Origin: a virus | Strand: one strand, 5' to 3' | Length of the DNA stretch: 64,000 bases | Virus record (IMG/VR): IMGVR_UViG_3300013426_000031 | In this document: positions 24,052 to 24,427 of the stretch, one piece after another | Numbering within the stretch: the stretch's first letter is position 1 | Layout: every line of letters begins with the position of its first letter | Notes under the pieces: generated by a model | Told to the model about the DNA's origin: nothing | Databases searched by the model: none | The model's input: the letters and a program-made list of their open reading frames with translations, nothing else | Made by a program: the position numbers and the translations under genes

Positions 24052-24427
24052 TTGGTGCGGATAGTGGGACTTGAACCCACAACCTTTGCAGGGTGAGATT
24101 TTCAAGCTACATTATGTCGCCATAACCACTTACGTGTTGTAGTCTGGACTATGTCTTCATCATATCTCTAACGACTTAGATGGTTGGTATATAGTCTCTA
24201 CACATTTACAAATTAAGAAATACATTTAAGATGCAGTATTTTTTATTACCTATTCTGAAAACTTAATTTGATTTAGCACGGCGTTCTGTGTTCGCCTTCG
24301 CCGTTTTAGCCAACTTCTACTCTAAAAGTTTCCTTTTAGGCACTCTCTACATTTTATTGTAGCGGACAGCAAAGTCTGTCCGGAACACATCAAAGTCTCA
24401 TGCGTTTGCCTATTTCGCCATATCCGC
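24052..24427 (-). tRNA. tRNA-Leu(UAA), type II, interrupted by a 291-nt group I intron between U34 and A35
   Basis: 5' exon 24393-24427 (GCGGATA acceptor, D-arm with G18G19, anticodon stem TGAGA, loop CTT|). 3' exon 24052-24101 (|AAAA, TCTCA, long variable arm CCCTGCAAAGGTT, T-arm GTGGGTTCAAGTCCCAC, TATCCGC-A-CCA). Confidence 0.6.
24102..24392 (-). ncRNA. group I intron (no ORF)
   Basis: R-like GTAGAGACTA and S-like AAGACATAGTCC elements form a P7 pairing (GACTA/TAGTC). Omega-G precedes the 3' exon. 5' exon ends in U. Confidence 0.55.

Follow-up and report, generated by a model that had tools for sequence, protein, structure and literature searches.

A split tRNA-Leu(UAA) gene in a viral genome

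We analyzed a 64,000-nucleotide stretch of viral DNA (IMG/VR record IMGVR_UViG_3300013426_000031), referred to in its full length as the window, in which a transfer RNA (tRNA) gene for leucine, tRNA-Leu(UAA), is interrupted in its anticodon loop by a 290-nucleotide insert. As laid out below, the insert is very probably a group I intron that is functional, has the IC3 (Azoarcus/Anabaena) architecture and carries no endonuclease gene, and its host appears to be a TAG-recoded phage. All tRNA genes in the window, the split one included, lie on the minus strand, as does every other window feature for which we give coordinates.

With introns allowed, ARAGORN reported the complete gene (24053–24427; exon 1, intron, exon 2 and an encoded CCA) as tRNA-Leu(taa) c[24053,24427] i(36,290); in its default mode it did not detect the split gene in the window. 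The 35-nucleotide 5′ exon (24393–24427), which reads GCGGAUAUGGCGAAAUAGGCAAACGCAUGAGACUU from 24427 to 24393 and terminates in ...GAGACUU, supplies the acceptor and D arms, the 5′ half of the anticodon stem (UGAGA) and residues C32, U33 and U34. The 50-nucleotide 3′ exon (24053–24102), read from 24102, opens with AAAAUCUCA and supplies A35–A38 and the other half of the anticodon stem (UCUCA), followed by a long variable arm, the T arm, UAUCCGC, A73 and CCA. Joined at the predicted junction (GAGACUU followed directly by AAAAUCUC), the two exons form a flawless 85-nucleotide type II cloverleaf whose variable arm is long and whose anticodon loop reads CUUAAAA.

The insert itself (24392 to 24103) begins with UGAUG, ends with GCUUG and lies between U34 and A35. 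No other pair of boundaries would combine an anticodon loop of seven nucleotides with a 5′ exon ending in U and an intron ending in G. Its G+C content is 37%, and a search for open reading frames (ORFs) within it found none, the longest stop-free stretch being 31 codons. The original prediction for this locus, which stated no strand, had rebuilt a type II tRNA-Leu(UAA) from two halves split at U34/A35, with a U closing the 5′ exon and an omega-G preceding the 3′ exon. ARAGORN's intron mode bore out this reconstruction, on the minus strand, with two corrections: the insert is 290 rather than 291 nucleotides long, and base 24052, given as the start of the feature, falls outside the gene.

Evidence for a group I intron

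A covariance-model search was among the checks proposed with the original prediction. Run in E-value mode, the Rfam group I model RF00028 matched the insert from 24381 to 24123 over its full length (model positions 1–253; 43.5 bits, E = 9.9e-10). At its gathering score, Rfam reported nothing at the split tRNA-Leu, and a check made at that threshold would have misled. A family profile trained on 53 relatives, the window's copy not among them, produced a single match over all 64 kilobases, to the insert (24352 to 24107; 157 bits, E = 4.2e-48). Both matches far exceed what chance would give.

The window's own copy has every core helix fully paired, including the P3–P7–P8 and P4–P6 domains and the P3/P7 pseudoknot. 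In an alignment of eight family members, evaluated against an explicit pseudoknot structure, 95.3% of cells were paired and 29 of the 51 pairs had changed on both sides, values that no shuffle out of 500 reached; sliding the partner by one to three columns gave pairing at 25–41%. (A hairpin that RNAalifold placed over the R element was spurious; RNAalifold cannot draw P7.) Together with the RF00028 match and the family profile, the paired core supports the earlier proposal of a group I intron at U34/A35.

The individual helices can be placed by subtracting the intron position from 24393, which gives the window position. The internal guide sequence GAGU (nucleotides 48–51; 24342–24345) pairs with exon ACUU to form P1, in which the terminal U of the 5′ exon makes the U(−1)·G48 wobble. 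Across host tRNAs the guide sequence changes along with the exon: P1 reached at least 4 base pairs in 59% of cognate guide–exon pairs versus 6.6% of swapped ones. Two hairpins occupy the expanded P1 loop (nucleotides 11–30 with 7 base pairs and 31–46 with 5; 24347–24382; −15 kcal/mol by RNAfold), and both are kept, with unrelated sequences, in four phage contigs (our L137, L125, L212 and L174) and in Ruminococcus albus. P2 (7 base pairs, nucleotides 54–71; 24322–24339) is capped by a GAAA tetraloop (L2), and 7 of its 9 aligned pairs were compensatory. P3 joins GUUGG (nucleotides 79–83; 24310–24314) to CCAAC (nucleotides 206–210; 24183–24187) and was 100% paired in the relatives, with compensatory changes in three of five pairs. 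P4 (6 base pairs, nucleotides 89–94/110–115; 24278–24304) closes a 15-nucleotide loop, AA-GGC-GAACACA-G-AA, that retains the AA pairs of J4/5 and J5/4. P6 has a long A+T-rich extension (nucleotides 116–191; 24202–24277) with an inner 9-base-pair stem (123–131/176–184).

P7 pairs nucleotides 195 and 197–202 with 241–247, that is, G195–C247, a bulged A196, and then GACUAU with AUAGUC. Its 5′ strand, the R element GAGACUAU (24191–24198), contributes the bulge and G197 of the guanosine-binding pair, and its 3′ strand is the S element AUAGUCC (24146–24152). The R- and S-like elements that had been expected to form P7 (GTAGAGACTA and AAGACATAGTCC) are thus present, on the minus strand. Both G195–C247 and G197–C246, the latter being the usual guanosine site beside the bulged A196, were invariant in all eight aligned relatives, and P7 covaried at two positions (CG/GC/AU and UA/CG). 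P8 (nucleotides 211–235; 24158–24182) contains a GAAA-tetraloop receptor of the 11-nucleotide type that reads UCUAAG...UAUGA in the window and CCUAAG...UAUGG in the family, the pair being kept by a two-sided change (alignment columns 257–348: CG in seven members, UA in one). P9.0 (nucleotides 248–254/283–288; 24105–24145) encloses P9 (nucleotides 257–266, GUAA loop) and P9a (nucleotides 267–282, with a GCGA loop of the GNRA type), 11 of the 14 pairs in this region being compensatory in relatives, and the intron ends with omega-G (nucleotide 290; 24103).

A pseudoknot in place of P5

No local P5 hairpin stacks on P4 in the window's intron, whose 15-nucleotide P4 loop cannot form one. Starting three bases past the 5′ splice site, the sequence UGUGUUC (nucleotides 4–10; 24383–24389) is a perfect 7-base-pair complement of GAACACA inside that loop (nucleotides 100–106; 24287–24293). 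In the subfamily sharing the P3–P4 motif, which yielded 60 different Leu(UAA) introns from phages, 205–926 nucleotides long, P4 loops of 17–34 nucleotides contained an ordinary local P5 hairpin, and loops of 13–16 nucleotides almost always had a perfect 6–8-nucleotide complement starting about 4 nucleotides into the intron.

Two tests, neither of which used the MAFFT alignment (it had misplaced the gaps in the loop), supported this pairing. In an alignment-free test of 27 distinct phage introns, which present 18 different helix sequences, 26 had a run of at least six Watson–Crick pairs with their own partner; such runs occurred in 3.8% of swapped partners and 4.8% of shuffled loops. In a fixed-register test, nucleotides 4–10 were compared with the seven bases ending 4 nucleotides before the 3′ strand of P4, a register not chosen by complementarity, in a gapless alignment of 41 distinct copies from phages, bacteria and metagenomes. 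Pairing was seen in 90.2% of cells, compared with 59.9% for shuffled and 33–45% for slid partners. All seven pairs had changed on both sides (85 cells versus 26.8 ± 3.5 in shuffles), and the covariation score was 0.772, a value that none of 500 shuffles reached, versus 0.225. The pairing, as judged from this comparison across relatives, is therefore well supported. We infer that the new helix stacks on P4 in the place of P5, with the 3-nucleotide GGC linker crossing as in an H-type pseudoknot. The adenines of J4/5 normally recognize the wobble pair of P1, and by placing the 5′ splice site beside them the helix would compensate for a P1 of 4 base pairs.

An intact intron or a relic?

Sequence and comparison establish the boundaries, all the helices, the pairing of the pseudoknot and the place of the intron in its family, and they point to an active ribozyme. 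Several observations nevertheless weigh against this assignment. The RF00028 score of 43.5 bits lies under the gathering score of 50; P1 is just 4 base pairs long, with no obvious P10; the outermost pair of P9.0 requires a bulged A; and the U–A pair that stands in P8 for the family's C–G may weaken docking of L2. The tethering role that we propose for the pseudoknot helix comes from geometry, and the catalytic activity of the window's intron, like that of its close relatives, is predicted from structure. Exact spliced-junction searches of IMG/VR and the JGI metagenomes found no intron-less allele that would fix the boundaries independently. The window's own 5′ junction had no exact match in IMG/VR, and a relaxed pattern retrieved five metagenome relatives, each at most 65% identical.

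The sub-threshold score, the short P1 and the departure of the P8 receptor from the family consensus could also be read as signs of decay, in which case the intron would be a dead relic within a tRNA-Leu pseudogene, or its splicing would need a host or phage protein. Such a reading could add that an intron without an endonuclease ORF is not renewed by homing, and that the nearest relative is at best ~69% identical. We consider it improbable. All core helices are paired, as are all seven positions of the pseudoknot, and where P8 and P7 have changed, they have done so in ways that preserve pairing instead of breaking it. The exons form a cloverleaf complete with A73 and CCA, and in the long minus-strand ORFs of the window UUA accounts for 37.5% and UUG for 14.0% of leucine codons (together 51.5%), a share that implies a need for tRNA-Leu(UAA). 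The low Rfam score, finally, is accounted for by the missing local P5 and a 43-nucleotide expansion of the P1 loop, and six relatives were likewise missed by RF00028 at the gathering score. We continue to regard the insert as very probably a functional group I intron.

A family of tRNA introns in phages and bacteria

The intron is a member of a large family, present in at least 180 phage contigs of IMG/VR. Two of its motifs, a 16-nucleotide block reaching from the 3′ strand of P7 to P9.0 (ATAGTCCAGACTACAA) and a P3–P4...P4′–P6 motif (P4′ being the 3′ strand of P4), each occurred in at least 120 IMG/VR contigs, and the latter also in 89 bacterial species representatives. At 57 of 121 loci (120 from IMG/VR plus one from the Lak-B1 phage), the 16-nucleotide block lay inside a split tRNA called by ARAGORN. 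When we enforced U(−1) and omega-G, the host tRNAs were mostly Leu(UAA) split at 34/35, with others being Asn(GUU) split at 35/36 and suppressor-type tRNAs with CUA or UCA anticodons. Many of the ARAGORN calls of Phe(GAA), Lys(UUU) and Glu(UUC) became Leu(UAA) under the same rule, and a call of Ser(CGA) became a CUA suppressor. Suppressors of the CUA and UCA types split by group I introns were present in IMG/VR contigs such as L043, L053, L003, L088 and L124.

The nearest relatives of the window's intron reside in gut and rumen phages and in the chromosomes of Ruminococcus and other Oscillospiraceae. The phage contigs L174, L137, L212 and L125 were 68–69% identical to it, and the Ruminococcus chromosomal copies ~60%. 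In about 40 genomes of Ruminococcus and other Oscillospiraceae, a conserved tRNA-Leu(UAA) gene on the chromosome contained a 231–244-nucleotide intron belonging to the pseudoknot class; R. albus 8, R. flavefaciens FD-1 and R. callidus ATCC 27760, the last with a complete chromosome, were among them. Relatives of ~700–930 nucleotides carried ORFs with an HNH motif and weak Pfam HNH matches, the ORF sitting within P6 in L314 and L316, and the window's intron probably descends from such endonuclease-bearing copies.

Descent within a phage lineage is suggested by the layout of L125, where a CUA suppressor is followed by a split tRNA-Leu as in the window, and by a ROOL RNA among the tRNAs of L137 (290 bits). 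In L212, a RAGATH-33 RNA (1029–1157; 126.8 bits) starts 14 nucleotides past the 3′ end of the split tRNA-Leu.

The retention of an intron that has no endonuclease gene might instead reflect a function, with the intron gating maturation of a heavily used tRNA in response to guanosine triphosphate (GTP) level or timing, or shielding the DNA or RNA of the anticodon loop from anticodon nucleases or homing endonucleases. It would fit this idea that introns of the same family split CUA and UCA suppressors in other recoded phages and in Lak-B1, and that the window's intron adjoins the CUA suppressor, as in L125. We think that selection of this kind is unlikely, as the Ruminococcus chromosomal copies are kept equally well outside a phage context and the data are accounted for if an efficient ribozyme simply persists neutrally.

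Relationship to known introns

The pre-tRNA-Ile intron of Azoarcus serves as the structural reference for the IC3 subgroup. It has a compact core, an L2 GAAA loop that docks on an 11-nucleotide P8 receptor (CCUAAG...UAUGG, the form seen in the family), a GNRA loop at the end of P9 and a very short P1, an arrangement that the window parallels. The Azoarcus intron resides in tRNA-Ile after position 36 and has a local P5 hairpin that receives L9, whereas the window's intron uses its own 5′ end at that place. Among the features of the compact IC3 architecture, the window shows a GAAA loop on P2 together with an 11-nucleotide P8 receptor, the absence of both P2.1 and P5abc, and a P9.0 that precedes omega-G. 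It departs from the subgroup in lacking the local P5, and we therefore call it a variant.

The original prediction had linked the intron, through its insertion site, to the lineage found in cyanobacterial and plastid tRNA-Leu genes. The intron of Nostoc PCC 7120 and plastid tRNA-Leu(UAA) indeed shares with it the gene, the insertion site (CUU/AAAA), the U(−1)·G wobble, omega-G and the absence of an ORF, as well as a GAAA-capped P2, a P9.0 directly before omega-G and an anticodon stem that joins the exons. This identity of site, exon context and general architecture would be expected after a recent transfer from the cyanobacterial or plastid lineage into the phage. The Nostoc sequence, which we took from the supplement of PMC13011429, scored 10 bits on the clade profile, compared with 157 for the window, and its global identity to the window's intron was 53%, compared with 60–69% within the clade. 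It also has a short P1 loop and an ordinary local P5 hairpin, in the places where the window has two extra P1-loop hairpins and the pairing between nucleotides 4–10 and the P4 loop that characterizes the clade. With gut and rumen phages and Oscillospiraceae as the nearest relatives, we regard a recent cyanobacterial transfer as scarcely credible. The earlier link thus holds for the site and architecture and is weak for sequence kinship: the two introns appear to be distantly related, through a shared site and subgroup.

The self-splicing group I introns best known from phages (those of T4 td, nrdB and sunY, and of SPO1 and Twort) often carry homing endonuclease genes and mostly belong to subgroup IA. 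They interrupt protein-coding genes and represent other subgroups, unlike the window's intron with its place in a tRNA gene. According to a 2014 review, all phage introns then known were in protein-coding genes, despite the many tRNA genes of phages (Hausner et al., 2014; PMC3984707), and papers on recoded, crAss-like and Jug phages mention group I introns in protein-coding genes only. The expectation that an intron in a phage tRNA gene is unusual accordingly agrees with the literature and is at odds with the data, given the frequency of each motif in IMG/VR. Surveys of bacterial tRNA introns (Williams, 2020; PMC13011429) covered bacterial genomes only; their class Leu.3Ug corresponds to the same site, and they report HNH endonuclease genes in Bacteroidota tRNA-Leu(UAA) introns. 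The supplement of PMC13011429 assigns to IC3 a tRNA-Arg intron from Bacillota that contains the same ATAGTCCAGACTACAA block. The word pseudoknot does not occur in the main text of that paper, nor a sequence of the pseudoknot type in the portion of its supplement that we could search. Our literature library, whose incompleteness leaves such absences unproven, contained no description of a P5-replacing pseudoknot and no paper on group I introns in phage tRNA genes.

A precedent comes from the Lak megaphages, which share with the window both anticodon-loop inserts in tRNAs and the recoding of TAG, and whose 'enigmatic' tRNA introns were left unclassified by Devoto et al. (bioRxiv 10.1101/356790), who stated that introns in phage tRNAs were previously unreported. 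Megablast of the 20 kilobases around the site found no match among GenBank phages; distant blastn found Lak-B phages only, over 86 nucleotides of the intron core at ~79% identity. The Lak-B1 homolog (L001, 1352–1669; MK250020.1, ~412,033–412,350) is 245 nucleotides long and, rather than a tRNA-Leu, splits at 35/36 the CUA suppressor tRNA needed for Lak TAG recoding. ARAGORN miscalls this gene as Ser(CGA), and it had no Rfam match at E-values up to 0.01.

Genome and neighborhood

We conclude that the window comes from a TAG-recoded phage. TAG appears to be translated in part of the genome: treating it as a sense codon raised long-ORF coverage from 54% to 76% and joined fragments into ORFs containing as many as 17 in-frame TAGs, examples being 30388–32649 (17 TAGs) and 21071–23947 (seven). 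Among the recoded ORFs, one matched a tail-fiber N-terminal PHROG and another a PHROG with no assigned function over 280 residues. An intact tRNA with a CUA anticodon (24545–24622), an amber suppressor that ARAGORN labels 'Pyl', lies 118 nucleotides upstream of the split tRNA-Leu. The window also contains PhoH, HNH/GmrSD and radical-SAM genes and encodes a protein with an SLH domain, which, together with the bacterial relatives of the intron, suggests a host among the Clostridia, probably of the Oscillospiraceae.

Three further tRNA genes in the window are split (44077–44212, 47383–47523 and 26577–26716), with perfect cloverleaf exons and CCA. Their anticodons are UCA (resembling an opal suppressor), Arg(UCU) and Ala(UGC), and their inserts of 58, 65 and 63 nucleotides are not group I introns. 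Two of the inserts share AATTCAAGTAGAAT and resemble an acceptor stem plus T arm, and the Rfam tRNA model matches inside them (38.6 and 38.4 bits). Unlike the tRNA-Leu intron, these split tRNAs recall the short tRNA-like inserts of the Lak phages, said to encode a possible tRNA. A fourth gene, at 48933–49485 (ARAGORN 'Ile i(36,475)'), has good exons and an anticodon loop split by ~477 nucleotides, its anticodon being UUA, UAA or UAU depending on the junction. As a candidate second group I intron it was rejected, having no Rfam match at E-values up to 1. Its insert encodes a 142-residue PD-(D/E)XK endonuclease (Pfam PDDEXK_5, E = 1.7e-28), a member of the family to which the endonuclease of the cyanobacterial tRNA-fMet intron belongs.

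Other RNA-related features lie nearby. A full-length ROOL RNA (RF03087, 318 bits) occupies 25453–26040 among the tRNA genes, ~1 kilobase from the split tRNA-Leu. A few kilobases away from this RNA and from the tRNA cluster are a gene resembling the major vault protein (MVP shoulder, Vault_3; 13660–16134), a TROVE-like gene (DUF2828/DUF7788, PHROG 'RNA-binding protein'; 16668–18185) and an SPFH/flotillin gene (8534–9916), a ribonucleoprotein-type set that is odd for a phage. At least three paralogous radical-SAM genes resembling anaerobic sulfatase maturases (5820–7118, 27539–28876 and 51777–53135) are present, two with 8–11 in-frame TAGs. A free-standing gene combining GmrSD_N and HNH endonuclease domains (44718–45905) lies within the second tRNA cluster, and Rfam called a tRNA at 27336–27406 (47.9 bits) that ARAGORN missed in both modes.

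A model for splicing

The structure suggests the following path from precursor to tRNA. The exons would form the cloverleaf, whose UGAGA/UCUCA anticodon stem would keep the two splice sites together, and the guide sequence GAGU would pair with exon ACUU as a 4-base-pair P1 with its U·G wobble. The P3–P8 and P4–P6 domains would fold, P7 making the guanosine pocket at G197–C246 beside the bulged A196, and the GAAA loop of L2 would dock on the P8 receptor. With nucleotides 4–10 paired to the P4-closed loop in place of a local P5, the 5′ splice site would lie 3 nucleotides from the base of the pseudoknot helix, a base that would itself sit by the conserved J4/5 and J5/4 adenines that recognize the wobble pair. 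GTP would attack after U34, omega-G290 would then enter the pocket, and exon joining would yield the CUUAAAA loop. The mature tRNA would read UUA and UUG, half of the leucine codons of the phage.

Implications

We tentatively propose that these introns form an undescribed subclass of IC3, missed at the Rfam threshold, in which P5 is built from the 5′ end of the intron and the P4 loop and so ties the 5′ splice site to the place where it docks. Among TAG-recoded phages of the gut and rumen and in the Oscillospiraceae that host them, this subclass is perhaps the predominant kind of tRNA intron, and its ribozyme activity might time the code switch through split suppressor tRNAs. The family is abundant in phage tRNA genes and apparently undescribed there, which counters the view that phage introns are confined to protein-coding genes. 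Because default ARAGORN and the Rfam gathering score miss such genes, phage tRNA inventories, including those of the suppressors used in recoding, are undercounted or mis-typed. The P5-replacing pseudoknot is a natural ribozyme variant that offers a ready test of the pre-organization of P1 docking, and the occurrence of the same clade in Ruminococcus chromosomes and in phages, with or without HNH genes, provides a usable system for studying intron exchange.

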